Sequence record: SRR31156797_401
DNA length: 64,000 nucleotides
Strand: one strand, 5' to 3'
A program made the position numbers and the translations under genes. Positions 4,078 to 53,503 of the stretch are shown here, in pieces. The stretch's first letter is position 1. Each line of letters opens with the position of its first letter. Below the pieces are notes generated by a model. That model searched no databases, was not told the origin of the DNA, and saw nothing but the letters and a program-made list of their open reading frames with translations.

Positions 4078-4995
4078 CTAATCTTGTTGTAGTCGTTCTA
4101 TAAGTTGAGGAACGAAATCATTTATGTCGGCCACAACCATAACATCAGCGACCCTGGCTATGGGAGCGTCCCTGTCGGTATTAATTGCGACTACAAAGGA
4201 GGCATTCTTCGTTCCGCCAAGATGCTGAGCAGCACCGGAGATACCACATGCGATGTAAAGTTTGGGAGATACACTCTGCCCCGTTGTACCAACTTGACGA
4301 CGGTACTCCATCCAATCAGCATCCACCACCGGGCGACTCGCTCCATGTTCCCCACCGAGCACTTCAGCTAGCTTGGCAATCAATTCAACATTCTCCGGCT
4401 TGCCCATACCACGCCCACCACTAACGATGACCTCCACCTTACTTAAATCAACACAGCTCTCATCGACCTCTTCATAACCGAGAAACTCTATCTGCCCGTG
4501 TTCATAACAGTCAATATGCACCACGTGAGGGGTAACGGCAGAAGATTCTGTTGGTTTGAAGGCACCGGGCTGAACTGTCACTACAGCGGTATCGGTTTTC
4601 ACCTCTACCTCTCTTCTCAACTTATAATTGCACGAAGGTACAACCAGTTTCCCATCAACATAATCCACCACCTCTGAAACCTGTGCCGCCTTGAGAACAA
4701 AAGCGATACGCGGGGCAAGATCCCAGCCATAGCTGGAGTGACTCAACACGACCATATCTGGGTGCTCTTTTTCAATCACCTTCAGCAACAGTCTCCTGTG
4801 GGCATCCGGATTATATTCACTATGCTTTATCGCATCTGCCAGGTAGAGAGTTCCCTCATACTGCGGCAGAGAAGTAGGATCACCGACCATAAACATAGCA
4901 TGCGCAGCACCTACTTTCTCTGCAAAGCCGATGATATCACTTACGCCTGCTTGGACCATTCCTTTTCTATATTCAGCAACAAGTAATGCTTTCAT
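4078..4995 (-). CDS. etfA: Electron transfer flavoprotein alpha subunit
   Basis: VSGGRGMG, GASRPVVD, QVGTTGQSVSPKLYIACGISGAAQHLGG, AINTDRDAPI. Confidence 0.95.
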   Translation of the reverse strand: MKALLVAEYRKGMVQAGVSDIIGFAEKVGAAHAMFMVGDPTSLPQYEGTLYLADAIKHSEYNPDAHRRLLLKVIEKEHPDMVVLSHSSYGWDLAPRIAFVLKAAQVSEVVDYVDGKLVVPSCNYKLRREVEVKTDTAVVTVQPGAFKPTESSAVTPHVVHIDCYEHGQIEFLGYEEVDESCVDLSKVEVIVSGGRGMGKPENVELIAKLAEVLGGEHGASRPVVDADWMEYRRQVGTTGQSVSPKLYIACGISGAAQHLGGTKNASFVVAINTDRDAPIARVADVMVVADINDFVPQLIERLQQD

Positions 4996-5004
4996 AACGT
5001 TAGC

Positions 5005-5778
5005 CTATCCCAAAACAGAGGTTTTCGTTTTCATTATCCGGACTAACTTCTCAGCCACAGTTCCCGGTTCCCCTTCAAGAACAACAGCCATACCTCTTCT
5101 CTCTGGGAAATAAAGCCTAGCGGTCTGCTGTCTGGCTTCACAGGTTATCAGGGACGAGACAGGGATGGTGAGAAGTTCCTTCTTCTTGGCTTTCATAATA
5201 TTGGGAAAAGTGGGATAGCGTGGAGTATTCAATCCTAGCTGGCAGGTTACCAGCGCAGGCGTGGTCAAAACCACATTGGCTCTGATGCCGCCTTCAAGTT
5301 CACGCTTAACCTCAATACGATTATTACTGTAAGAAAAATCAACGACCGTTGTAACGCTCGGTATGGAAAGCATCTCACCGACAAATACCCCAACCTGGGC
5401 ACTACCACGATCCTGTGATTGCATGCCGGTAAAGATAAGATCGAAGTCCTTATCCCCGGCATACCCAGCGATGATGCCGGCTATGGTAAAAGGCTCCCTG
5501 ATGCAAGCATCATCATCGGCAACATGGATACCTCTGTCACACCCTATGGCAAGGCCTTTCTTTATGGCCTCCTTGACCCTTTCCGGTCCAACGGATAACA
5601 CAGTGATGTCTGTGTCCTTAACCTGCTCCTTAACGCGTACCGCTTGTTCGACCGCATACTCATCATACTCGTTCATCCGCCAGGCCAGGTCACCGGTATC
5701 ATACCAAAGGCCATTGGCTGCGATCTCGAATTTGGAATTCATATCCGGAACCTGCTTTATGCAGACTAAAATTTTCAT
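5005..5778 (-). CDS. etfB: Electron transfer flavoprotein beta subunit
   Basis: MKILVCIKQVPD, MNEYDEYAVEQA, GMQSQD, RELEGG, NTPRYP. Confidence 0.95.
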   Translation of the reverse strand: MKILVCIKQVPDMNSKFEIAANGLWYDTGDLAWRMNEYDEYAVEQAVRVKEQVKDTDITVLSVGPERVKEAIKKGLAIGCDRGIHVADDDACIREPFTIAGIIAGYAGDKDFDLIFTGMQSQDRGSAQVGVFVGEMLSIPSVTTVVDFSYSNNRIEVKRELEGGIRANVVLTTPALVTCQLGLNTPRYPTFPNIMKAKKKELLTIPVSSLITCEARQQTARLYFPERRGMAVVLEGEPGTVAEKLVRIMKTKTSVLG

Positions 5779-5797
5779 GTTACCCCTAAATATTTTA

Positions 5798-7798
5798 TCA
5801 CGTAGACCCTAAACGTTCGACCAGTACTTCAGTGATATCCTTTGGGTCCAGAGTTCCCTCTGCACTTGCCCCCTTTATGCCATCCTCAAACATGGTTAGA
5901 CAAAAAGGGCAGTTAGAAAGCAAAAATGGTGTCTCGGTTGCCATTGCCATTGTGACCCGCTTTAGGTTGATGCGCTCTCCTGTCTTTTCCTCAGCCAGAA
6001 TCCGCCCCCCGCCTGCACCACAGCAGAAGGAATGATCTCGGTTATTCTGCATCTCAACAAGCTGCCCGCCTGCAACCTTAATCAGCTTGCGTGGTATCTC
6101 ATACATATCGTTGTAGCGACCAAGATAGCAGGAGTCGTGATAGGTACAGGAAAAACCATCTTTGTTAATTTTCAGCCTACCGGCCGCAATCAGCTGCTCA
6201 AGGAAAACGGTATGCGGCAACACCTCGGCCTCAAGCCCAAAATCACGGTAATCCTTTTGCAGAGTATTAAAACAGTGGGGACAGGTAGTGACAATTTTAT
6301 TAATGCCATAGGTGTTCACTCGTTCGATATTTTCCATGGCAAGGTTTTGGTACAGGTATTCGTTGCCCAGCTTGCGCATCGGCTCACCACAACATTTCTC
6401 TTCCTTGCCTAAAATTCCCACCTTAACACCTGCAGCTTGGCAGAGTTTTACAAAACTCTGCGCAACCCGTATATTGCGACTGTCAAAGGAGCCATAGCAG
6501 CCTACAAAATATAAGATATCCACGTGGGAATCTTCGGTTAGCGGTGTTATTCCTAGTGCATTTGCCCATTCCCCCCGTGAAGCAAATCCATTTCCAAGAG
6601 GGTTTCCGTCTACTTCGGTTTCTTCCATGGCAGCCATGACCTCCTCACCAGGGAATTCACCTTCCATAAGTACCAGGCCACGCCGCATCTCAATAATTTT
6701 ACTGACATGTTCAATCGAGGCTGGGCACTTTTCCTCACAAGCCCGGCAGGTCGTACAGGCCCAGATCGCATCTTTTCCTATAGTTTCAATGAGCCCGGCC
6801 TTTGGAGTACAGAAGGCAATATCTCCAATCTGTTTAATCACCTTCATTGGGGAAAGCTGTTTACCTGTATCCCATGCAGGGCAGCTATCTTGACATCGTT
6901 TGCACAGAGTGCAGGCATCGGCATCAAAGATATCCTTCCAGCTCAGGTCTTGGACAGACGAAGCACCAAATTTTTCGGCATCCTCGTCCTCAAGATCAAT
7001 ACTGATCAGCTTGCCCTTTGGGCCACAGTCGGCAAACAAGTAATTGGTGCTAGTGGTAAGAATATGGCGAAACTTAGTCGTAGGAAGAAGACCTATGCTC
7101 ACCATCACCATCAAAAGATGGAGCCACCACATGAATCCATGCAAAGTCCTTAAGCCCTCTGCACCCAAAGGCGCTATCATATTGGCGACAACCAGGCCAA
7201 TGGGTGACCAGGCTGCAACCGGTGTCCCCAACTCTGTTACGGCCATCCTTGCGCCCTCGACAACAAAGCCGCTAACCAAAATCATGAAAAAAAGGCCATG
7301 CATGACACCATCTTCCCACTGCGATTCAAGGCCTTCCGGTTTACATATATAACGCCTGATAAAGAGCAACCCTAGCATGATGATCGCAAGCAGCCCTGCA
7401 AGATCAAGGGTGATCGAAAAAATACTATAGAAGGGACCTGTAAGAAAAGTAAAACCAAACAACGGATCTGTAAAATCTACCTGGATGAAAATCAGGATGG
7501 TCCCAATAAAAAGCAGCAAAAAGCACCAAAAAAGAGCAGCATGCAGCAATCCAGGCCATTTACCCTGCAAAACTTTTTTCTGCAGCAAGACATTCTTAAA
7601 CATCTCGCCAATCCTGAGCCAAATATCATCTGTGCGTTTCAAGGCCTGCCCTTGCCTGTAAGCTCTCAAACGATTCAAGAAGGTCCGTCCAAGCACTGTA
7701 CCTGCTGCAATAACCAGCAGGTACATCGGTACCAGAGTCAAGGCCCCGTGACCGACGTTCCAGTATATTTCGCGCGTAAATTCCAAATTACACTCCAA
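5798..7798 (-). CDS. Membrane-anchored Fe-S/CCG oxidoreductase (NarI-like TM domain + 2x[4Fe-4S] + 2 CCG domains); probable ETF:quinone oxidoreductase
   Basis: N-terminal TM helices with His residues (LLHAAL, WWLHLL, KFRHIL), CTLCKRCQDSCP, CTTCRACEEKCP, EKCCGEP...TTCPHC and HDSCYLGR...FCCGAGG...NCPFC. Directly upstream of etfBA. Confidence 0.88.
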   Translation of the reverse strand: MECNLEFTREIYWNVGHGALTLVPMYLLVIAAGTVLGRTFLNRLRAYRQGQALKRTDDIWLRIGEMFKNVLLQKKVLQGKWPGLLHAALFWCFLLLFIGTILIFIQVDFTDPLFGFTFLTGPFYSIFSITLDLAGLLAIIMLGLLFIRRYICKPEGLESQWEDGVMHGLFFMILVSGFVVEGARMAVTELGTPVAAWSPIGLVVANMIAPLGAEGLRTLHGFMWWLHLLMVMVSIGLLPTTKFRHILTTSTNYLFADCGPKGKLISIDLEDEDAEKFGASSVQDLSWKDIFDADACTLCKRCQDSCPAWDTGKQLSPMKVIKQIGDIAFCTPKAGLIETIGKDAIWACTTCRACEEKCPASIEHVSKIIEMRRGLVLMEGEFPGEEVMAAMEETEVDGNPLGNGFASRGEWANALGITPLTEDSHVDILYFVGCYGSFDSRNIRVAQSFVKLCQAAGVKVGILGKEEKCCGEPMRKLGNEYLYQNLAMENIERVNTYGINKIVTTCPHCFNTLQKDYRDFGLEAEVLPHTVFLEQLIAAGRLKINKDGFSCTYHDSCYLGRYNDMYEIPRKLIKVAGGQLVEMQNNRDHSFCCGAGGGRILAEEKTGERINLKRVTMAMATETPFLLSNCPFCLTMFEDGIKGASAEGTLDPKDITEVLVERLGST

Positions 7799-8290
7799 TG
7801 CTCATACAAGTGCTTCCATTAAAAATTTCCGAAAAAATCGACTGATGCTGTCAAAAAGCTCACAAGTAAATGCCCCTGCCGGACACGACTCTCTCTCAAC
7901 CAAAACACATTGTGTTCTTTCAAGATACAACCCCTATAATTTCCACATTGATTGAAAAACAAATCGGATAACAAAAAAGTGAAAGAGTTTCGGAATACGA
8001 TCCAGCTCTTTTTCAATGATACCGAACTTCAATCATTCCTATTACAGTGACAACGAACCAAACAAATCACAACCACCAAATTAAATCCAAAAAAATGTTC
8101 CATTTTAATGTGGATCCGGCGTCATTATGACGATAGGCGCCAGGAAAACTTCTAAAAAAAATGATCTTGCCTGGTACGTTTCTGCTGGTACAATGAAAGT
8201 GCCTACAAAAAATACTGACCACCATACTTCAAACTATCCGTCCCTTTCTTTTATAAGGTTCATAACGAGGCTTGCCCTCCTTGCTTCCCC

Positions 8291-13367: not shown

Positions 13368-14513
13368 ATGAAACCAGCAGTACTGACAGGCGAACATTAC
13401 ATAACAGGTGACGTTGCCTGCGCCGAAGGAGCTATTGCCGCAGGATGCAAGTTCTTCGGAGCCTATCCCATTACCCCCGCAACCGAAGTTGCCGAACATA
13501 TGGCAGAACGCCTGCCTGATGTTCAAGGCACCTTCATCCAGATGGAGGATGAAATCGCTGCCATTGCCTCCATCCTTGGAGCTGCATGGACAGGAACCAA
13601 AAGTATGACCTCTACTTCGGGGCCAGGATTCAGCCTGATGATGGAAAACCTTGGCCTGGGAGTCTGCACCGAAACACCATGCGTGATAATTAACGTACAG
13701 CGCACCGGACCATCAACCGGACTACCTACTCTTACCGGCCAGGGAGACATGATGCAGGCCAGGTGGGGATCCCATGGTGACTACGAAATTATCGCACTGG
13801 CCCCCGCATCTCCCCAGGACTGTTTTTACCACACCATCCTTGCCTTTAATCTCAGCGAGAAATACCGAGTCCCTGTACTTGTAATGGCAGATGAAATCGT
13901 TGGCCACATGAGTGAAAAGGTTGTTATTCCAGAAGCTTCTGAAATCAAACTGATTGATCGCCCGAAGCCTAGGGGCAGAAAGGATCGATTCAAACTGTAC
14001 GAGCCAGGCCCAAACGGAGTTGCACCTATGCCAGCCATTGGGGACGGGTACAACGTACATGTTACTGGCCTGACCCACGACGAACGCGGCTACCCCGCCA
14101 TGAGTGTCGAAGCCCAGGAACAGATGATGACCAACCTTAAGGGTAAAATTCGCAATAACCTTGACGACATCATCGAAACCGAAGAGTACCGGATGGACGA
14201 TGCTGACATTGTTATTGTCTCTTACGGCATTTCAGTGCGTACTGGACTGACTGCAGTCGACGAGGCAAGAAAGCTTGGCTACAAAGCTGGTCTGCTGAGG
14301 CTGGTGACAGTCTGGCCCTTTCCGGAACAGATGATTAGAGATATAGCCGAGCGCGTGCGAGGCCTTATCACTGTTGAAATCAACCTGGGCCAGGTTCACT
14401 ACGAGGTCGAACGGTGTGCAGGCGGAAAAGCTCCAGCCTACCTTGTCGGCAGTGCAGGCGGAAAAATAATTCACCCGGACAAGGTTATCGAACTGATTAA
14501 GGAGACCTTCTGA
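13368..14513 (+). CDS. korA: 2-oxoacid:ferredoxin oxidoreductase alpha subunit (Kor-type; substrate unproven)
   Basis: YPITPATE, QMEDEIAA, TSGPGFSLMME, VQRTGPSTGLPT, EINLGQ. Confidence 0.92.
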   Translation: MKPAVLTGEHYITGDVACAEGAIAAGCKFFGAYPITPATEVAEHMAERLPDVQGTFIQMEDEIAAIASILGAAWTGTKSMTSTSGPGFSLMMENLGLGVCTETPCVIINVQRTGPSTGLPTLTGQGDMMQARWGSHGDYEIIALAPASPQDCFYHTILAFNLSEKYRVPVLVMADEIVGHMSEKVVIPEASEIKLIDRPKPRGRKDRFKLYEPGPNGVAPMPAIGDGYNVHVTGLTHDERGYPAMSVEAQEQMMTNLKGKIRNNLDDIIETEEYRMDDADIVIVSYGISVRTGLTAVDEARKLGYKAGLLRLVTVWPFPEQMIRDIAERVRGLITVEINLGQVHYEVERCAGGKAPAYLVGSAGGKIIHPDKVIELIKETF

Positions 14514-14516
14514 GCA

Positions 14517-15368
14517 ATGACAAAAAATCCCAAAAAGTATAATAAACAACCAGTCCACCCCCTAGACGATCTTATTCGCACCGACCGAATCCCCCATATA
14601 TGGTGCTCGGGGTGCGGTATTGGCACGGTGTTTTCTTCCTGCTTAAAGGCTATCAAGGCTACAGAGATCCCTTACAACCGGTTCACCATGGTCTCAGGTA
14701 TCGGTTGCTCAGCCAGGGGAGCTGGTTATGTCAATCTCGACTCCTTCCACACCACTCATGGCAGAGCCATTCCCTTTGCCAGCGGGATCAAGATGGCAAA
14801 TCCAGACCTGAAGGTTATTGTCTTCAGCGGAGATGGTGATCTATTTGCCATTGGCGGCAACCATTTTATCCATGCTGCCAGGCGCAACATGGATATCACC
14901 GTTGTCTGCGTGAACAATCTCACCTACGGGATGACCGGTGGTCAGGTAGCAGCCACCACCCCCAACAACGCGAACACAACAACAACCCCGTTCGGCAATC
15001 CGGATTCGCCTTTCAACCTACCGCTGATGGCCTATGCTTCTGGCGCGTCCTACATTGCCAGATGGACAATTCTCCACACCAGGGAACTCACGGACTCCAT
15101 CAACGAAGCCATAAATAAAAAGGGATTTTCATTTATCGAAGCTCTCTCCCCCTGCCCGATCAATTACGGTCGCAGAAACAAGGAAAAGCCCCTTGACACC
15201 CTGAAGCTGTACCAAGAAAAGACCATTATTAAAAATGGCGCTGACCCTGCAAAAGCTGATATCGATTTTGAACGTGGAGTCATCCTGGGCAAATTCGTTG
15301 ATACAGACCGAAACACCTGTGACGACATGTACGCCTCTAAATGTCACCGTCCCTGCTCTGACGATTAA
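14517..15368 (+). CDS. korB: 2-oxoacid:ferredoxin oxidoreductase beta subunit (TPP-binding)
   Basis: WCSGCG, SGIGCS, HGRA, GDGD...NNLTYGMTGGQ, SPCP. Confidence 0.92.
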   Translation: MTKNPKKYNKQPVHPLDDLIRTDRIPHIWCSGCGIGTVFSSCLKAIKATEIPYNRFTMVSGIGCSARGAGYVNLDSFHTTHGRAIPFASGIKMANPDLKVIVFSGDGDLFAIGGNHFIHAARRNMDITVVCVNNLTYGMTGGQVAATTPNNANTTTTPFGNPDSPFNLPLMAYASGASYIARWTILHTRELTDSINEAINKKGFSFIEALSPCPINYGRRNKEKPLDTLKLYQEKTIIKNGADPAKADIDFERGVILGKFVDTDRNTCDDMYASKCHRPCSDD

Positions 15369-15404
15369 ATCTCCTCTCACCAATACGCCTGCTGACAAAG
15401 TACT

Positions 15405-16013
15405 ATGAATGACCAGGAAAAAAACACCATTGCGCAAACAGAAATCATTGTCACCGGATTTGGCGGCCAGGGCATTATCCTTGCCGGAAAAATCCTGGGT
15501 ATGGCTGCTTCCCTTGGCGACCATAAGGAAAGCACACTGGTACAGGCCTACGGCCCAGAATCCAGAGGTGGTGCATGCAACGCACAAGTAATCATTTCCG
15601 AGACCCCCATCCATTATCCCTATGTGCAGTATCCTGATATTCTGATAGCGATGTCCCAGGCCGGTTACGATAAATTTGCCGGCCAGATATCTGAAAACAG
15701 CATTCTGCTGATCGACCAGGATCTGGTACCGACCATTAATGCACCCTGTCCTGCCTACACAATCTCCTCGACAAGGATGGCAGAAAAGCTAGGACATAAA
15801 ATGATGGCGAATATCATCATGGTTGGTTTTACAACGGCAATTACCCAGCTTGTCTCCAGCAATTCTGCCCAGGAGATGATTGCTAAATCAGTCCCTAAAG
15901 GCACGGAAGAAAAAAACATCGCAGCCTTTACCAAAGGCTATGATTACGGCCTCTCTACCCTAAAGGGCCGGGAAAGAAAGGCCGCCGGTCAGGCAGGAGC
16001 CATTGTAGAATGA
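15405..16013 (+). CDS. korC: 2-oxoacid:ferredoxin oxidoreductase gamma subunit
   Basis: GFGGQGIILAG, YGPESRGG, ANIIMVG. Confidence 0.92.
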   Translation: MNDQEKNTIAQTEIIVTGFGGQGIILAGKILGMAASLGDHKESTLVQAYGPESRGGACNAQVIISETPIHYPYVQYPDILIAMSQAGYDKFAGQISENSILLIDQDLVPTINAPCPAYTISSTRMAEKLGHKMMANIIMVGFTTAITQLVSSNSAQEMIAKSVPKGTEEKNIAAFTKGYDYGLSTLKGRERKAAGQAGAIVE

Positions 16014-19000
16014 AACGCGCAAAAGAACGTTTACAAAGAGTTATAGTTATTGGTGCCACCCCGGAAGGCATTGCAGCAACCAATAAGCTTGGAGAACTGG
16101 GCGTACCGGTAACCCTGATCGAGTCTGAGCCGGATATCGACCACAAGCTGACTGCTGACAGGTTCCGGCTCCGCTCCGGCCTTAGCTTTAATTATGCCTA
16201 CCGACCAGGACTGATAAGGATCATGCGCAACAGCGCCATCCGAAGCATCCTGCCTGCCAGAATCAGCTCCATCAAACATACACCTCAAGGGTTCAGTGTC
16301 CGGGCGGTACAGGAACAGACCTTTATTGACCCTGATAAATGTACCCTTTGCGGCAAGTGCGCTGCAACCTGCCCGGTAACCACCTGTGAAGGCCTCAGCC
16401 CCATCACTTTTCACTCTCGAGTAGCGCTCCCCGGTCGCCCCTTTATCGACAAACGACAACAGCCCCTCTGCCAGGCAAATTGCCCGCTGGGAGTCAATGC
16501 CCAGGGATATGTTGCCCTGGCAGCCCAGGGGAGATACCAGGAGGCACTGGACCTGATCCGTGAACAAAACGTGCTGCCTGGAATCTGCGGCCGTATCTGC
16601 ACCCACCCCTGCGAAGATGCCTGCCGAAGGGGTGAGATTGACGAGGCCGTGTCAATACGGGCTATTAAACGATTTGTTGCCGACTACGTAGAAGGTGACA
16701 GCAAAGAGGCCTCTACAGCAGCCCCTATCACTGCTCCCCAGAAAAGAGCTGAGAAGATAGCTATTATCGGCTCCGGGCCTGCAGGCCTCGCAGCGGCGGC
16801 AGAACTTGCCAAGTTCGGTTACGCGGTAACAATATTTGAAAAAGAGACAGCAATCGGCGGCATGCTTCGTTATGGCATAGGTTCACACCGCCTACCGGAA
16901 ACAATTCTCAACCGGGAACTGGAATACATAAAACGTCTTGGCGTAAACATTGTGAACGATAGCAAGGTAGCTCTTGAAGACGACCTTGCATCCTTGCAAG
17001 AACAGTACCAGGCAGTCATCGTCGGTACCGGTACCTGGTATGACCGAAAGCTTGGCGTTCCCGGTGAGGATCTGTCTGGTATTGAAGGGTGTATTTCTTT
17101 TCTGGGAAGTGAGAAGGTGCACAACATTGATAAACTCAATGAAAAAATAGCTGTTATCGGTGACGGTAACTCGGCCTTTGACCTTGCCCGAACCTTAACC
17201 AGATTAGGGGCCGAGGTGACACTTGTATCCTGGTTTGGTAAGGACCAAATACCTGCCGATCCAGATGAAGTCCGGGAGGCAATAGAAGAGGGCATAACGA
17301 TTATTGACCAAACCCAGGTTACCGGGTTCATAGGCGAAAACAATCGGTTTACAGCACTTGAGTGCAGGAAAACAAAACAAGGAAAACCAGATACAAATGG
17401 TATCGCCTGGCCGGTACTTGACGACCAACATGCTCCTTCTGCCCTGGAATTTGATCGGGCCTTTGTGGCCGTAGGCCAGGTTGGTGGTTTTTCTCCGGAC
17501 AATACGACCCTCCCCTTTAAGATCACTGACCATGGTTTTATCGCCACTGATGCGGCTCAAAGAACGTCAACCAACGCACTGTATGCCGCAGGAGATGCCG
17601 TTTCTGGCCCCTCATCGGTTGTACACGCCATGGCCTCTGGCAAGCGGGCTGCGGCTGCAATCCATGAAGATCTTAGTGGCGAGACGGTCCTCTCCCCTCT
17701 AACCCGTCCCGAGCAAAAAGATTTCACCTCTATCCCACCAGACATCGCTTGGCATAAACGTCCGGAGATGGCTGAAAAAGAAGCGGGAGAAAGGGAGAAA
17801 GATTTCACAGAGGTAGCGCTTGGCCTCTCCAAACAGCAAGTAGAGGAAGAAGCACAACGATGCCTCCAATGTGGTGCCTGTTCCGAATGTTTTCAATGCA
17901 TTGAGGCCTGCGGTGCACTCAAAGCCATCGACCACATACAGCATGAACAGGAAATCAAGGAACAGGGAGGCGTTCTTATTGTAGCCGACCCTGCCATGGC
18001 TACCAACATCAAGGGGGAAGATGTTATTAGAGCATACGGCCCCAGGGCTGCCCGTGCCGATGTTAACGACATGACCGTGCGAGGCTTTGCCGCCGCCGGC
18101 AAAGCAATGCTGCTTCTTAGCGACACCGCTAGAAAGAAAACCAAAGGCCACGGTCTTGCCTTTGCCATGCCTGATGCGGGCCTCTCACCCGAATCGAGAA
18201 TCGGTGTTTTCGTCTGTCGCTGCAACGACTCTCTTGGCTGGATGGATGGAATGACCACCCACCTCAAGGAACAAGAGACAATCGACCCTGCAATTGTCCA
18301 CATTGAGGAACTCACCTCTGCCTGCGTCAGCGAAGGAATTGATGCCATAATAAAAGCCACCCGGGAAAAAGACCTGACCAGGATTGTACTCGGGTCTTGT
18401 GTCTGCTGCCCGCTCAACTTTGTGTGCAGCTCATGTACAGATCAGCGCAGCCGCCTCAAAGACAAACTCTTCCATGGCACAGGAATCAGCAGGTCCATGG
18501 TGGAGACTTCCAACCTGCGCGGAGAGATATTACGCCTGGTAAAAAGCAACCCTCAGCTCGCCATGAAAAGGTTCCAGGGGCTGCTCCACCGGTCAATAGA
18601 AAGGGCAAAAATTCTCAAGCCCTTACCTGCTGTTGACCGTAACTATAACTTCACGGCAGCTGTTATCGGTAATTCTGAGGCTACACTTACCAGTGCCGTA
18701 CACCTTGCCAAAACAGGGCATGATGTCTTTCGCTTCGGCACCAGGGAACAACCTCTCACCGAACCAACACCAAATGATAACATTCATAGTTTTACAGGTT
18801 GGGATGTTAAAGCACTCAGCGGTACCATTGGTGACTTTCAAATTTTGATTGAATCCGGCCAGGAGCGCCAAGTGATAAGGGCCGGGACAGTTATCCTCGG
18901 TGATAAAGCACGACGGAGCCTCCCTTATACCCATCAAGAGGGCCTCCCAACCTGCAACATAGAGCCGCTCCTGCAGCAAAAAGGGGTCGCAGGTATTCCC

Positions 19001-19408
19001 TTTGCCTATCCGTGCGCCACTTCCGTTCCGGGACTCTTTCTTGCTGAACCACCCGGTATCAACGTTTCCAAACTTAAAAAAGGCGCTGCAGCAGCGATAA
19101 TGGCAGCATCGGCCCTGCCTAGAGGTCCAAGGCAAAGTAAAGGGTTTACTGTGGTTGTCAATCAGAAACTCTGCCGGGGATGCGGTCGGTGCTCAACCGT
19201 CTGCCCGTACCATGCCGTCACCTTTCATCAAAACCAAACCGGCGGCTGGCAGTCCTCCGTGGACGAAGCTATCTGCAAGGGTTGTGGCAACTGCATTTCT
19301 GTCTGCCCAACCGGAGCTGCCGACAGCCCCTATCGAAACCGAGAATACCTTGAGCAGACCCTCGAAGAAATATTAAGCAACCAGGACATCCATGACCATG
19401 CACAATAA
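16010..19408 (+). CDS. HdrL-like multidomain flavoprotein: degenerate HdrA modules surrounding a GltD/NfnB-like pyridine-nucleotide oxidoreductase, with several Fe-S sites
   Basis: CTLCGKCAATCP; GltD-like CQANCP...CGRICTHPCEDAC, IIGSGPAG, GGMLRYGI, VIGDGNSA, AAGDAVSGP; EAQRCLQCGACSECFQC; HdrA N-terminal-like RIGVFVCRC; C-terminal CRGCGRCSTVCP and CKGCGNCISVCP. Confidence 0.85.
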   Translation: MKRAKERLQRVIVIGATPEGIAATNKLGELGVPVTLIESEPDIDHKLTADRFRLRSGLSFNYAYRPGLIRIMRNSAIRSILPARISSIKHTPQGFSVRAVQEQTFIDPDKCTLCGKCAATCPVTTCEGLSPITFHSRVALPGRPFIDKRQQPLCQANCPLGVNAQGYVALAAQGRYQEALDLIREQNVLPGICGRICTHPCEDACRRGEIDEAVSIRAIKRFVADYVEGDSKEASTAAPITAPQKRAEKIAIIGSGPAGLAAAAELAKFGYAVTIFEKETAIGGMLRYGIGSHRLPETILNRELEYIKRLGVNIVNDSKVALEDDLASLQEQYQAVIVGTGTWYDRKLGVPGEDLSGIEGCISFLGSEKVHNIDKLNEKIAVIGDGNSAFDLARTLTRLGAEVTLVSWFGKDQIPADPDEVREAIEEGITIIDQTQVTGFIGENNRFTALECRKTKQGKPDTNGIAWPVLDDQHAPSALEFDRAFVAVGQVGGFSPDNTTLPFKITDHGFIATDAAQRTSTNALYAAGDAVSGPSSVVHAMASGKRAAAAIHEDLSGETVLSPLTRPEQKDFTSIPPDIAWHKRPEMAEKEAGEREKDFTEVALGLSKQQVEEEAQRCLQCGACSECFQCIEACGALKAIDHIQHEQEIKEQGGVLIVADPAMATNIKGEDVIRAYGPRAARADVNDMTVRGFAAAGKAMLLLSDTARKKTKGHGLAFAMPDAGLSPESRIGVFVCRCNDSLGWMDGMTTHLKEQETIDPAIVHIEELTSACVSEGIDAIIKATREKDLTRIVLGSCVCCPLNFVCSSCTDQRSRLKDKLFHGTGISRSMVETSNLRGEILRLVKSNPQLAMKRFQGLLHRSIERAKILKPLPAVDRNYNFTAAVIGNSEATLTSAVHLAKTGHDVFRFGTREQPLTEPTPNDNIHSFTGWDVKALSGTIGDFQILIESGQERQVIRAGTVILGDKARRSLPYTHQEGLPTCNIEPLLQQKGVAGIPFAYPCATSVPGLFLAEPPGINVSKLKKGAAAAIMAASALPRGPRQSKGFTVVVNQKLCRGCGRCSTVCPYHAVTFHQNQTGGWQSSVDEAICKGCGNCISVCPTGAADSPYRNREYLEQTLEEILSNQDIHDHAQ

Positions 19409-21008
19409 AGAGTCCTCACCTATTAAAATTATTTTATTCCTCTGCAACTGGGGAGCCCATGCTGCCTATCAAACCCTGCAGGATGAACAGCGCCCCATCC
19501 CGGATGAAGTGCATATGGTTCGAATTCCCTGTACAGGAAGAATCGACCGTGCCCTGCTGCTCAAAGCATTTGCCATGGGGGGGGACGGGGTAGCCCTTGT
19601 CGGTTGTGATCCGGGCACCTGTAGATATGGTACAGGAACTGCCACAGCGCAGCGCAACACCAAAGACACAGGGATGATTCTGGACCTTATGGGTCTTGGC
19701 AGCGAAAGGCTGCGTTTTGCATCTTTTCTGCCGGACGAATCAGATAACCTGCTGCTCTTTCTCGAAACCTTCCTCCAGGACCTCCAACAACGGGGTAAAA
19801 CCAGTATCCAACCTGCACCAGGAGCGCACCCGGTCGACAACATCCCAATGAGTGCAGGAGCGGAGCTGCAGAAACTGATTGCCACCCATGACATTTATGC
19901 CTGCCAGGATTGCGGAAAATGTTCTTCTGCCTGTCCTCTCGCCCTGATAGGCAAACCTTTTTCAGCACGCGGCATCGCCACTGCAGCCATTACAGGTAAC
20001 CTCAATGATGCCGGGGTTAAGGAAAATGTATGGTCCTGCCTGACCTGCGGTTTATGCTTTGAGCGGTGTCCTTCTGCTGTCAACTTTCCTGAATTTATTA
20101 AAGAGCTACGCCATCTTTACAAACAAAACGACAAACATGGCGACGAAACCCATGGTGGTTTTCTTCACGCGCTGATGCGTTCCATGGCTTCGCCTGAGCT
20201 GACTCCCAACAGGTGGCAGAACATCCCCAAGGAGCTGCAGGTCGACCAGAAGAGCAACATCCTCTTTTATGGTGGGTGCGCGCCTTATTATGACATTTTT
20301 TTCAACAAACACCTGGATGTACAAACAGAAAAAATCCTGTTTGATGCCATCAGACTGCTCAACTTCTTTGACGTCCACCCACGGTTGCTCAAAGATGAAC
20401 GCTGCTGCGGTCACGATCTGCTCTGGTCTGGCGACAACGAATATTTCCTTGAAATTGCACGCCTCAATGTCGACAAATTAAACAGCCTTGGCATTGACAC
20501 CATGATCACTTCCTGTCCCGAGTGCTACATGACATTTAACACAACCTATCCGGCACACGGATTGGAACTTAATTTCAAGGTTATACACTTGTACGAATTC
20601 CTTGAAAAAGAGATTGACCGCTCTGCGGTCAGCTTCAAGCCATTGGATAAAAACATTACTTTCCAGGATTCCTGTCGCCTCACTCGCCTTGAAGGCAAGC
20701 CCGAGTTGCCCCGTCTGCTGCTGGAGCGGCTCGCTCCTGAGTCTTTTCAAGAGATGCAGGAATCTGGTAAAGCCGCTGTCTGTTGCGGCAATAGTGCATG
20801 GACCGGATGCGATGCATACAGCAAGGCAATGCAGGTAAAGCGCCTGGAGCAGGCCCGGGATACGGGAGCGGATCTCCTGGTTACAGCCTGCCCCAAATGC
20901 CAGATCCATCTCAAATGTGCCATGGAAGATCCATTACGGCTCAACAAGTTATCTATCGACATGCAGGATCTCACCAGCGTGATCGCGCAAAGTATCAGCT
21001 GGAAATAA
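19392..21008 (+). CDS. MvhD-like [2Fe-2S] domain fused to an HdrD-like region (2x[4Fe-4S] + two CCG domains)
   Basis: FLCNW, RIPCTGR, GCDPGTCRY, ERL; CQDCGKCSSACP, CLTCGLCFERCP; ERCCGH...SCPEC; QDSC...VCCGN...ACPKC. Confidence 0.9.
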   Translation: MTMHNKESSPIKIILFLCNWGAHAAYQTLQDEQRPIPDEVHMVRIPCTGRIDRALLLKAFAMGGDGVALVGCDPGTCRYGTGTATAQRNTKDTGMILDLMGLGSERLRFASFLPDESDNLLLFLETFLQDLQQRGKTSIQPAPGAHPVDNIPMSAGAELQKLIATHDIYACQDCGKCSSACPLALIGKPFSARGIATAAITGNLNDAGVKENVWSCLTCGLCFERCPSAVNFPEFIKELRHLYKQNDKHGDETHGGFLHALMRSMASPELTPNRWQNIPKELQVDQKSNILFYGGCAPYYDIFFNKHLDVQTEKILFDAIRLLNFFDVHPRLLKDERCCGHDLLWSGDNEYFLEIARLNVDKLNSLGIDTMITSCPECYMTFNTTYPAHGLELNFKVIHLYEFLEKEIDRSAVSFKPLDKNITFQDSCRLTRLEGKPELPRLLLERLAPESFQEMQESGKAAVCCGNSAWTGCDAYSKAMQVKRLEQARDTGADLLVTACPKCQIHLKCAMEDPLRLNKLSIDMQDLTSVIAQSISWK

Positions 21009-21029
21009 TCATATAAGCGGAGAATTCCC

Positions 21030-23459
21030 ATGACCCCAACCAACCCTCGTCAAAAATCCGCAGGGGACGAAGCTACGCCCCGCATAGGTGTCTATGTATG
21101 CCATTGCGGACTCAATATAGCCCAATCTGTAAACTGCCCACAGGTAGCAGAAACAGCCTCTGCAGCCAACGACGTTGTTCTGTCCAAGGATATTACCTAT
21201 GCCTGCTCTGAGCCAGGCCAGCAGGAAATAAAGCAGGACATTCTTGACAATCAGCTGGATCGGGTTGTTATCGCTTCCTGCTCTCCCCGGCTACATGAGC
21301 CAACCTTTAAGCAGATGGTGCAGGATGCAGGGCTTAATCCCTACATGATGGAAATGGCCAACCTGCGGGAACAGTGCTCTTGGGTGCATATGAACGATGT
21401 CGAGAATGCCACCCGCAAGGCAGAAACCCTGGTGGACATGGCGGTTTCCAGAGTACGTCATCTTGCCCCACTGACAGAAGAAACCATGCCTCTCATCAAA
21501 AAGACCATGGTCATTGGCGGTGGTATTGCCGGAATCCAGGCTGCCCTAGATCTTGCAGACTGTGGCTATGAGGTCACCTTGGTGGAAAAGCAACCTTCCA
21601 TCGGTGGAATGATGGCTCGGCTGGACAAGACCTTTCCAACCATGGACTGCTCGATCTGAATACTCGGTCCTAAGATGACGGATGCCGGTCGGCATCCAAA
21701 AATAAAGCTCCTGACCTTAAGTGAGGTCGTGGATGTGAAAGGCTATGTCGGTAATTTTGATGTTAAAATTATCAAAAAGGCAAAATATGTTGACGAGACC
21801 GCCTGTACGGCCTGCGGCGATTGTGCCACGGTCTGCCCTGTGGTACGTCCAGATGAATTTGACATGGGACTTGCTTCGCGTAAGGCCATCTACAGCCCGT
21901 TTCCCCAAGCTGTCCCATCGTCCTACCTTATCAATATTAATGAGTGCTTGGGACACAATCCGGCGGTTTGCTCAAAATGTATTGATGTATGTGATAAAAA
22001 ATGCATCAATTTCCATATGTCAGATGAGGAAATTACTGAGCATGTTGGCTCTATTATTGTCGCCACCGGATTGGAGCCCTATGACCCCACCGAACTTGAC
22101 GAATACGGGTACACCCGATTTGAAAACGTATTGACCAGCCTTGAGTTCGAGCGCCTGGTCAACGCCGGAGGACCATCAAAAGGCAACCTGGTTCGACCGA
22201 CAGACAGGAAAACACCGAAATCGGTCGGCTTCATTCAGTGCGTCGGTTCAAGGTCGCTCAGGAAAGGGGAGGAATACTGTTCCAACATCTGCTGCATGAA
22301 CACCATCAAGTCCACTTTGGTGCTCAAAGAGCATTACCCGGACATGGAAGTCAAGGTGTTTTATATTGATATCCGTGCCTTTGGTAAAGGATTTGAGGAC
22401 CTGTATACCAGGAGCCGCAGGTTAGGGGTCAAGTTCATACGAGGCCTGCCAGGATCTCTTGAAGAAACAGCAGATAATACCATGCGAGTTGCCGTTGAAA
22501 ACTCAGCCACCGGCAAACTGGAATTCCATGAACTGGATATGCTGGTACTCGCCTTAGGTGTACAACCAGCACCCAGCACCCAACGGCTCCAAGAAATCAT
22601 GGGGCTGCAGCTGACTCCAGACGGATTCTATCTGGAAGCCCATCCGAAGCTGCAGCCGGTGGATGCCGCCACCCGTGGTATTTTCTATGCCGGATGCGCC
22701 GAAGGTCCAAAAGACATAAAGGAAAGTGTTACCCAGGCTTCGGCTGCAGCTGTCAGGGCAATCCGCCTGATGCATAAAGGCGAAATCACCTCTGAACCAA
22801 TCACCTCAGAGATTGTGGTTGAGAAATGCAAAGCCTGCGGAAAATGTGCAGAGGTTTGCCCTTATAATGCAATTTCGGTTGATGTCAAAAACAAGAAGCC
22901 AGCGGTGGTTAATTCAGCGGCGTGTGCCGGTTGCGGTACCTGTGCAGCAGAATGCCACTTTGATGCCATTATCATGAACCATTACACTGACCAGCAGATT
23001 CTCGGTCAGGTGGACGCCATGCTCACCACTGAGCCGGAAACCAAAATACTGGTCTTTGCCTGCAACTGGTGTTCCTATGCTGGGGCAGATTACGCAGGTG
23101 TAGGCAGGTTGCAGTATCCTGCCAATGCGCATTTGGTGAGAGTAATGTGTTCGGGAAGAGTAGATGAGAAATTCATCTGGGAAGGATTTCGCGGCGGGGC
23201 ACCGGTGGTGCTTGTCAGCGGTTGCCACATTGGTGACTGCCACTACATCGATGCCAATCACTGGACCGAAAAGAGGGTAACGAAACTGCACAAAAAAATG
23301 AAACGGCTCGGCATCCGACCGGAAAGGCTGCAACTGGAGTGGATCAGTGCGGCTGAGGGTATCCGCTTTGCAGACAAAATGAAGGAGATGGAAGCATTAA
23401 GAAAGAGTGTCTCTGCCGAGGAGATCGAAGACACCATAGAACTGCTGACAAAACTGTGA
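21030..23459 (+). CDS. hdrA: Selenocysteine-containing HdrA with C-terminal MvhD fusion (809 aa, U210)
   Basis: The track ORFs 21030..21659 and 21675..23459 are in frame. The junction reads LDKTFPTMDCSI-TGA-ILGPKMTD, where HdrA normally has DKTFPTxDCxxC-I-L-x-P-K-M, and a SECIS-like hairpin follows. Intact GGGIAG, QCVGSR, YCSNICC and GPKDI; C-terminal CNWCSY, CSGR and GCHIGDCHY. Confidence 0.93.
21680..21697 (+). promoter_or_regulatory. Bacterial SECIS element for hdrA
   Basis: GGATGCC-GGTC-GGCATCC perfect hairpin; the loop begins 27 nt after TGA 21657-21659. Confidence 0.85.
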
Positions 23460-52369: not shown

Positions 52370-53503
52370 ATGACCAAAACACTTTCTGCTAAACACCTTT
52401 TCGCAGTATTCTGCCTGCAGCTTATCCTTCTCACAACAGTCCATGCAGAAGAAGTGCCCAACCTGCTGATTTTATACTCTAATGATATCCAAGGGGAACT
52501 CAAGCCCTGTGGCTGAGGGAGCAATAAATTGGGCGGTCTGTCCAAACGCATCACCCTTGTGAACCAACTATCAAACACAACCAATACCCCGTTAGTGATT
52601 GACAGTGGCAATCTTTTTTTTAAACCCGGAATTTCTAAGCATACAAATTCTTCGGCTGCGCAAACAAAAGCTACAATAATAGCACAAACATTTCTTGCTG
52701 GCCAAAATGCCGTTGCCGCAATAGGTCGCAATGATCTCATTGCAGGCCCTTCTTTTTTAAAAAATCTAGAAAAAAATCATTCCATCCAGTTTCTCTCGGC
52801 AAATCTCGCTGAAGCAGATACCGAGACGCTCCTCTTCCAGCCCTTTACCACCAAAAAAATAGGCGAACTTCATATCGGTATCATCGGTCTCACCGGCTTG
52901 CCCCTGCCCCCCTTTCCAAATGCTCCACTTTCGCTCCTTTCCTGGGAAAAAGTTTTACCCAAACTCCTCGAACGACTCGGGTCGCAAGTCGACATGATCG
53001 TACTCCTCTCTAATCTCCCCTCACATGAAAACATAAAAATAGCCCAAAATTTCGATGCTATTAATATCATTTTCCAATCTGGAAATACCACTAAGGGAAA
53101 CGTTCCTCCAAACATAATCAGTAATACCCTCGTCTGCCAAACCACAACCAGAGGGAGGTATCAGGGAGTGCTTGAAATCAAGTGGAACGAATCTCGAAAA
53201 TGGAAAGTGCATGCCCCAACAAAAAGGGAACTCAATCAGATAAAGGCTCAACTGGAGCAGGTTAACCAAAAGATACTGGAGAGTGAACAGGAACACCCTG
53301 AGAAAGCCAGGCAAGATATTCGTTTGAAGGGACTACAGAGACTCAAGCAAAGACTGGCAGGTAAGCAGGAGCAATTACAACAACAGGCAAACAATAGCAA
53401 TAGTTCCGGAGCAACCTATAGCAACCGTTTTATTGCCCTCTCTTCCCAAGTGGAAGAAGACCAACGAACAGGAGAACTGATACGGGCAGCAAAGCTCAGA
53501 TAA
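52370..53503 (+). CDS. Secreted UshA/5'-nucleotidase-like selenoprotein (377 aa, C-G-U at 47-49)
   Basis: ATG 52370 gives a signal-peptide-like N-terminus and LLILYSNDIQGELKPCG, then TGA 52514-52516 in frame with GSNKLGGLSKR... (track ORF from 52529). Followed by a SECIS-like hairpin. UshA-like IDSG, AIGRND, FLSAN and IGIIGLT. Confidence 0.87.
52529..52545 (+). promoter_or_regulatory. Bacterial SECIS element for the UshA-like gene
   Basis: TTGGGC-GGTCT-GTCCAA hairpin (one G-U pair); the loop begins 18 nt after the TGA and shares GGTC with the hdrA SECIS. Confidence 0.78.

Follow-up and report, generated by a model that had tools for sequence, protein, structure and literature searches.

A UGA codon very probably read as selenocysteine in an HdrA2-type gene of a bacterial gene cluster with HdrL and a 2-oxoacid:ferredoxin oxidoreductase

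Does the TGA triplet at positions 21657-21659 of the sequence record SRR31156797_401 end a gene, or does it specify an amino acid inside one? In the window analysed here, i.e. the whole stretch of 64,000 nucleotides (nt) from this record, the triplet is the in-frame separator of two open reading frames (ORFs) on the plus strand, one at 21030-21659 (209 amino acids, aa) and the other at 21675-23459 (594 aa). The original prediction, made from the sequence alone, was that the two frames constitute a single selenoprotein gene of the heterodisulfide reductase subunit A (HdrA) family. Our analyses lead us to conclude, with high confidence and on sequence evidence, that 21030-23459 (+) is one hdrA2-type gene, encoding a flavo-iron-sulfur protein of 809 aa in which the UGA is decoded as selenocysteine (Sec, U).

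When the TGA is taken as U, translation of 21030-23459 yields 809 residues and runs to a second TGA, the terminal stop. Around the Sec codon the product reads ...KTFPTMDCSIUILGPKMTDAGRHP..., with C207-S-I-U210 forming a CxxU motif. The NCBIfam profile NF040770 (HdrA2) has a curated cut-off of 1100 bits. Read through, the product attains 1190.4 bits, its residues 18-799 covering positions 1-776 of the 777 in the model, whereas the N-terminal piece alone (319 bits, model 1-192) and the C-terminal piece alone (841.1 bits, model 199-776) both fall below the cut-off and are colinear and complementary to each other. Pfam searches with the 809-aa product returned Pyr_redox_2 at residues 158-353, Fer4 family matches at 594-649 and FlpD (MvhD) at 673-789. 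Residues 16-665 align to the HdrA chain 5odc_A of the structure PDB 5ODC (E = 9e-228), and residues 668-787 to the MvhD chain 5odc_D of the same structure. The HdrA2 domain set, consisting of the flavin adenine dinucleotide (FAD)-containing, thioredoxin reductase-like core, the ferredoxin domains and a C-terminal MvhD, is complete in the product. Translation indeed carries the predicted DCSI-TGA-ILGPKM in one frame across the two ORFs, and the idea of a single 809-aa CxxU gene is borne out by the scores of the whole product and of its pieces. As for the name of the protein, the assignment to the HdrA family stands; plain HdrA does not, since the protein is of the HdrA2 type, fused to MvhD. The start of the gene at ATG 21030 is preceded, at a distance of 6 nt, by GGAGA, a Shine-Dalgarno-like motif read from the sequence at 21019-21023 (+), and the closest three loci from Desulfobulbaceae (L001, L019 and L025) match from query residue 1.

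Were the TGA a true stop, the region would represent either a pseudogene or a split gene giving rise to separate proteins of 209 and 594 aa, the latter starting at Met216, encoded by the internal ATG 21675-21677 (+). Current annotation practice would agree with such a reading: two ORFs are called here under translation table 11, and among the 120 best database hits 51 are C-terminal fragments of 574-607 aa, cut at or just after the TGA, 47 of which begin with MTDxGRHP at the Met located 15 nt after the TGA. Inspection of the sequence before ATG 21675, however, revealed no Shine-Dalgarno-like motif, and judging from the ORF list and the database fragments we regard this ATG as a false start used by gene callers for the C-terminal fragment. 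The comparative evidence is likewise at odds with a true stop. With each species represented by a single genome, a scan yielded 79 related loci with 66-97% aa identity, all from Desulfobacterota-type records, and in all of them the U210 codon is TGA, with both flanks conserved in frame. The motif search recovered the codon in 78 of these loci; the remaining one, L009, had escaped the search solely through Phe replacing Leu two codons after the TGA, and it has the TGA as well. A pseudogene would not retain both halves together with one specific stop codon. The closest locus, L001, is approximately 90% identical to the window at the DNA level over 14 kb and therefore stems from a related species and not from the window's own genome. 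Considering, in addition, that the TGA falls exactly on a conserved cysteine (Cys) position and is closely followed by a hairpin whose bases covary and whose synonymous sites are frozen (both described below), we find a true stop very improbable.

The position in question is well defined structurally. U210 falls on Cys197 of 5odc_A within a gapless alignment block. In the description given in PMC9012536, the N-terminal [4Fe-4S] cluster of an HdrA protomer receives Cys197 as a ligand from its partner. Another report (PMC13518236, 2026) describes an HdrA of Methanococcus maripaludis in which Sec197 was observed to form a bond with a cysteine in the space separating cluster A3 from FAD; it proposes Sec197 as a thiol/selenol relay, with the exact role left unresolved by its authors. 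All 69 full-length proteins among the 120 best database hits have C at the site of U210, with the proviso that the search tool may print U as C, and Sec forms annotated as such may be among these 69 hits. In addition, 121 genomes were sampled evenly across the phylum, 70 of them with a match at E <= 1e-150, and here TGAs were counted per match rather than placed within it. Among full-length matches with at least 65% identity, nine contain one TGA and one contains none; a partial match with 75% identity, ended by a contig edge, also has one TGA, and seven full-length matches at 55-59% identity have zero. Both Sec and Cys forms thus exist, given that loci and matches with a TGA are accompanied by full-length homologues that show C or are free of TGA. 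The alignment to Cys homologues, proposed beforehand as a check, hence places U210 where a Cys form has its cysteine, and the expectation that HdrA has Cys in most cases and Sec in some agrees with the presence of both forms among the homologues.

A trivial explanation of the in-frame stop would be a sequencing or assembly error that turned TGC or TGT into TGA. Such an error can hardly account for the TGA at the U210 codon in 79 independent assemblies. Comparison of the window with contigs of four sequencing runs points in the same direction: a 395-nt contig from X1, built separately, covers 21630-21900 with no differences (X1 is possibly the source sample, so this contig is not independent), contigs from X3 and X5 with approximately 90% identity span the whole stretch, and no other letter occurs at 21657-21659 among the contig rows listed. 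As contigs drop rare variants, a minor TGC or TGT variant is neither proven nor excluded by them. We consider the probability of an error in the window to be close to nil.

The next question is whether the transcript carries a signal that would direct the insertion of Sec. Downstream of the TGA, at 21680-21697 (+), lies a perfect inverted repeat, GGAUGCC-GGUC-GGCAUCC, which can form a 7-bp stem closed by a GGUC loop, with 20 nt separating the UGA from the stem and 27 nt separating it from the loop. On its own, the hairpin reaches -13 kcal/mol (z = -3.82), and one of 200 shuffled sequences folds as well. The bacterial selenocysteine insertion sequence (SECIS) consensus, in the form given by the 2026 review PMC13188914, comprises a 3-9-nt loop with G at positions 1 and 2, a 4-16-bp stem, a distance of 16-37 nt between UGA and loop and a minimum free energy of at most -7.5 kcal/mol, and the hairpin satisfies these constraints with its 4-nt loop starting with GG, seven base pairs, 27 nt and -13 kcal/mol.

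Evolutionary conservation of the hairpin was assessed in 80 sequences, i.e. the window and the 79 related loci. It is free of indels in all 80, 98.2% of the cells are paired according to the hairpin structure, and four pairs are invariant. None of 500 shuffles attains the observed pairing or covariation score, and shifting the 3' arm along the alignment lowers the pairing to 24-58%. The sixth pair is formed by CG in 37 sequences, by UA in 36 and by UG in seven; it is unpaired in none, and C-A is never seen there. Of the two bases involved (within 21684-21692), one is the middle base of codon 219, which reads GCC (Ala) or GUC (Val), and the other is the last base of the Arg221 codon, CGG or CGA, so that a change in the protein is tied to a silent change. 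The alternation between Ala and Val at residue 219 is a case of the SECIS RNA structure constraining the choice of an amino acid. The compensatory changes are phylogenetically independent. A protein tree was inferred with FastTree after masking of the codons for Sec and for the hairpin, and it requires a minimum of 11 changes of the 5' base and of 14 changes of the 3' base. Eight independent pairs on supported branches differ in their 5' base; on average, the 3' base goes along with it in 7.2 of them, and in none does it run counter to it (sign test for compensatory change, median p = 0.0156). Synonymous sites tell a similar story. Third-position entropy within the hairpin is 0.59 bits at codon +7, 0.10 bits at codon +8 and zero at codons +9, +10 and +12, and it amounts to 0.99 bits at codon +11, the covarying Arg, where CGG and CGA alone occur; the flanking degenerate codons that were compared mostly show approximately 0.7-1.9 bits, the lowest values being 0.43-0.51. 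Taken together, conservation, covariation and the fit to the bacterial consensus support the hairpin as a functional RNA element and as the upper stem-loop of a bacterial SECIS, in keeping with the earlier proposal that a perfect hairpin with a G at the start of its loop, located 3' of the TGA, plays this role.

The SECIS of the Escherichia coli fdhF gene has a GGUC loop and a spacing of 11 nt from the UGA. The hairpin described here resembles it in its short, G+C-rich upper stem and in its small loop starting with GGU, and differs from it in the 20 nt that separate UGA and stem; no bulged U was seen in the hairpin of the window.

A further observation concerns the contigs mentioned above. Many of them, from four runs of which at least three are metagenomes, pile up on approximately 120 nt of the window (21597-21717). 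For many of the piled-up contigs the last position is exactly 21697, where the hairpin ends on its 3' side, and loose ends after 21661 correspond to other sequences that follow a TGA. The pile-up is consistent with the existence of numerous HdrA paralogues or relatives that have the motif and the UGA in common and, for some of them, the hairpin as well.

For the UGA to be read as Sec, the organism has to possess the respective machinery. We searched for it in the genomes of five Desulfobulbaceae loci (G001-G005), relatives of the organism from which the window derives. Matches above the cut-off to selA, selB and selD were found in all five, and tRNA-Sec above the gathering score in four of the five, with ARAGORN confirming the anticodon TCA. 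Each selD contains one in-frame TGA (L090-L094), which makes SelD a selenoprotein in its own right within this group, and in G003 selD of this kind is present in two copies. A tRNA scan of the 64-kb window detected no tRNA.

The window contributes evidence of its own in the form of a second selenoprotein gene, located at 52370-53503 (+) and containing a TGA at 52514-52516. Its product is UshA-like, with a signal peptide and a KPCGU motif. When read through, it scores 310.5 bits against NF041198 ('UshA-like (seleno)protein'), whereas the truncated ORF at 52529-53503 scores 250.7 bits; the cut-off of 275 bits is hence reached solely when the TGA is read through. Covering model positions 4-375 of 519, the protein falls short of the full family model. 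At a distance of 12 nt 3' of this UGA begins a hairpin, UUGGGC-GGUCU-GUCCAA, its fold being no better than those of shuffled sequences. This gene supports the notion that the organism of the window decodes UGA as Sec. The two Sec codons were among 15 candidates returned by a scan of the window for in-frame TGA junctions, five of which were looked at. The junctions at 14511 and 46668 proved to be ordinary stops between adjacent genes in the same frame, and the TGA at 7802-7804 (-), upstream of a membrane HdrD/HdrF-like gene, was rejected because no convincing coding sequence and no Cys/Sec motif precede it.

Conservation of the reading frame across the TGA could, in principle, be explained by read-through alone, with the codon translated as some other residue, i.e. 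as Trp or Gly under a reassigned genetic code or as Cys or Trp by near-cognate suppression. TGA is, however, the ordinary stop codon of many other genes in the window, and it also terminates hdrA2 itself, so the code is not reassigned. The occurrence of selA, selB, selD and tRNA-Sec in the relatives, the fit of the hairpin to the SelB-binding consensus and the identity of the aligned residue in homologues, which is Cys, the usual counterpart of Sec, likewise speak against this explanation, and we give it very little credence.

Several points nevertheless weigh against decoding of the UGA as Sec and against what we deduce from it. The evidence for selA, selB, selC and selD stems from relatives and not from the window's own organism, a circumstance that would also suit a true stop. 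The fragmented 3.3-Mb assembly of the closest relative, G001, to which the locus L001 belongs, yielded no tRNA-Sec at the gathering score, the best match being a tRNA-Trp, and its selA is matched in part only, at the edge of a contig. Concerning the RNA, 76 nt around the TGA fold no better than shuffled sequences (z = -0.75), only the local hairpin standing out. No Rfam family matched the hairpin, neither in a search of the whole window at the gathering threshold nor in a search of 21600-21760 at E values up to 10, which gave chance-level matches only; as no family reached the threshold, this null result carries no information. The outermost pair of the stem is broken in nine of the 80 sequences, and in one of the 80 pair 4 is a C-A mismatch. 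Finally, the assignment of Sec210 is based on sequence-level evidence, and the function of the cluster, like the role of U210, is deduced by homology.

The interpretation of the gene as encoding a Sec-containing HdrA is right, and it represents an already known, ordinary case. It is not novel, because HdrA has been catalogued as a bacterial selenoprotein family since at least 2006, when Zhang et al. (PMC1794560) catalogued 16 Sec-HdrA genes, including one from Desulfotalea psychrophila, a relative of the present group, along with seven copies in Syntrophobacter fumaroxidans and four in Syntrophus aciditrophicus; HdrA is again listed as a selenoprotein family in PMC13188914. Going by these accounts, the Sec-HdrA proteins of Deltaproteobacteria/Desulfobacterota (PMC1794560; HdrA1 and HdrA2 of Desulfobacterium autotrophicum, PMC2702500) belong to the same family as the protein reported here and likewise combine an in-frame UGA with a bacterial SECIS located within the gene. 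The operon stressed in PMC1794560 is glpC-hdrA-frhD-frhG-frhA, which includes a hydrogenase, whereas the gene of the window is the MvhD-fused form and resides in a 2-oxoacid:ferredoxin oxidoreductase-hdrL-mvhD/hdrCB-hdrA cluster, a comparison made by description. HdrA2 of the Methanosarcina/Archaeoglobus type (NF040770) is matched in the HdrA-MvhD fusion and in the full-length score above the cut-off, and differs in that Sec replaces Cys at position 210 in our protein. As to methanogen HdrA (5ODC; the M. maripaludis Hdr-Vhu-Fwd complex as described in PMC13518236), U210 coincides with the Cys197/Sec197 site, but MvhD is fused to HdrA in the window and the SECIS is located within the ORF, unlike the archaeal element, which lies in the 3' untranslated region; the location in the ORF is explained by the bacterial nature of the gene.

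The Sec-HdrA2 gene is the last member of a co-directional cluster extending over 13368-23459 (+). The head of the cluster is formed by genes for the alpha, beta and gamma subunits of a 2-oxoacid:ferredoxin oxidoreductase (13368-16013, +), identified by the profiles NF006412, NF007207 and NF006323. They are followed by an HdrL-like gene (16010-19408, +), for which domain and profile matches indicate a product of 1132 aa combining a GltD-like NAD(P)-binding module, an HdrA N-terminal part and ferredoxin domains. HdrL was defined in PMC2702500, which reports Sec-containing HdrA and HdrL proteins in D. autotrophicum. Directly upstream of hdrA2 is a gene for an MvhD-HdrC-HdrB fusion protein of 538 aa (19392-21008, +), in which FlpD, a 4Fe-4S dicluster domain and two CCG domains were recognized, likewise by domain and profile matches. 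Gene order in the 79 loci was evaluated by tblastn, counting matches that covered over 50% of the query. The gene for the CCG-containing HdrB/HdrC partner is located immediately before hdrA in 73 of the loci, HdrL is present in 62, and the gamma subunit occurs upstream of hdrL in 56. Five of the six loci without MvhD-HdrCB have approximately 1 kb or less of upstream DNA, whereas the sixth, L018, lacks the gene despite 6 kb of it; gene order is thus kept wherever the upstream sequence suffices, with L018 as the single exception.

The cluster is probably of the type that has been described in S. fumaroxidans as 'HdrAL/POR' (Sfum_0012-0018), a Hdr-like set with a pyruvate:ferredoxin oxidoreductase and HdrL; according to the account in PMC5947623, the corresponding complex was not detected in proteomes. 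By description, the gene order of that set is the same as in the window and in most of the related loci, including that of a Syntrophobacter metagenome-assembled genome (L022).

What may the encoded proteins do? Bacteria are known to insert Sec by means of SelB, which brings Sec-tRNA(Sec) and attaches to the SECIS loop when the ribosome arrives at the UGA. By analogy, SelB recruited by the putative SECIS at 21680-21697, inside the coding sequence, would insert Sec210 at the UGA 21657-21659 from Sec-tRNA(Sec). The residue, together with C207, would then form a CxxU pair in the thioredoxin reductase-like FAD domain, at the position held by Cys197 or Sec197 in methanogen HdrA, where the residue has been regarded either as a cluster ligand or as one partner in a redox-active Cys-Sec pair located between this cluster and the bifurcating FAD. 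Judging by homology, the C207/U210 pair probably acts at the junction between FAD and a [4Fe-4S] cluster in an electron-bifurcating or confurcating Hdr-like module. The upstream MvhD-HdrCB protein and HdrL are the probable partners of HdrA2 in such a flavin-based module, which would link ferredoxin, supplied by the adjacent 2-oxoacid:ferredoxin oxidoreductase, with NAD(P)H and a disulfide acceptor.

The identity of the disulfide deserves a comment, for the name heterodisulfide reductase comes from homology. The window shows no evident hydrogenase and no evident coenzyme M/coenzyme B (CoM/CoB) metabolism, which makes it probable that the disulfide reduced in vivo is a different one from that of methanogens; similarly, because the relatives are Desulfobacterota and not methanogens, a disulfide other than CoM-S-S-CoB is the likelier substrate. 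Published work has put forward DsrC for this role. A far-reaching possibility, which we put forward tentatively and consider rather doubtful, is that the cluster specifies one electron-confurcating or bifurcating complex coupling the oxidation of 2-oxoacids (via ferredoxin) and NAD(P)H to the reduction of a protein disulfide, e.g. in DsrC, with a C207/U210 selenylsulfide as the relay between FAD and the N-terminal cluster.

In practical terms, the gene is to be recorded as a single selenoprotein with a translation exception at 21657-21659, considering that the annotation of homologues as fragments hides their FAD domain and active-site motif. The Sec-HdrA2 gene also marks the organism as a user of selenium, with which the second Sec gene in the window agrees. 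No new kind of biology is implied, yet, as is apparent from PMC13518236, the field of flavin-based electron bifurcation has still to settle the Cys/Sec197 site, and cultured relatives that possess the same TGA, such as Desulfobulbus elongatus (L029) and Desulfoprunum benzoelyticum (L025), may serve as bacterial test systems.

Another set of Hdr-related genes is located elsewhere in the window, at 4078-7798 (-), where genes for the alpha and beta subunits of an electron-transfer flavoprotein adjoin a gene for a protein of 666 aa that is hydrophobic towards its N-terminus and of the HdrD/CCG type towards its C-terminus. This set resembles the 'HdrF-EtfBA' arrangement of D. autotrophicum.

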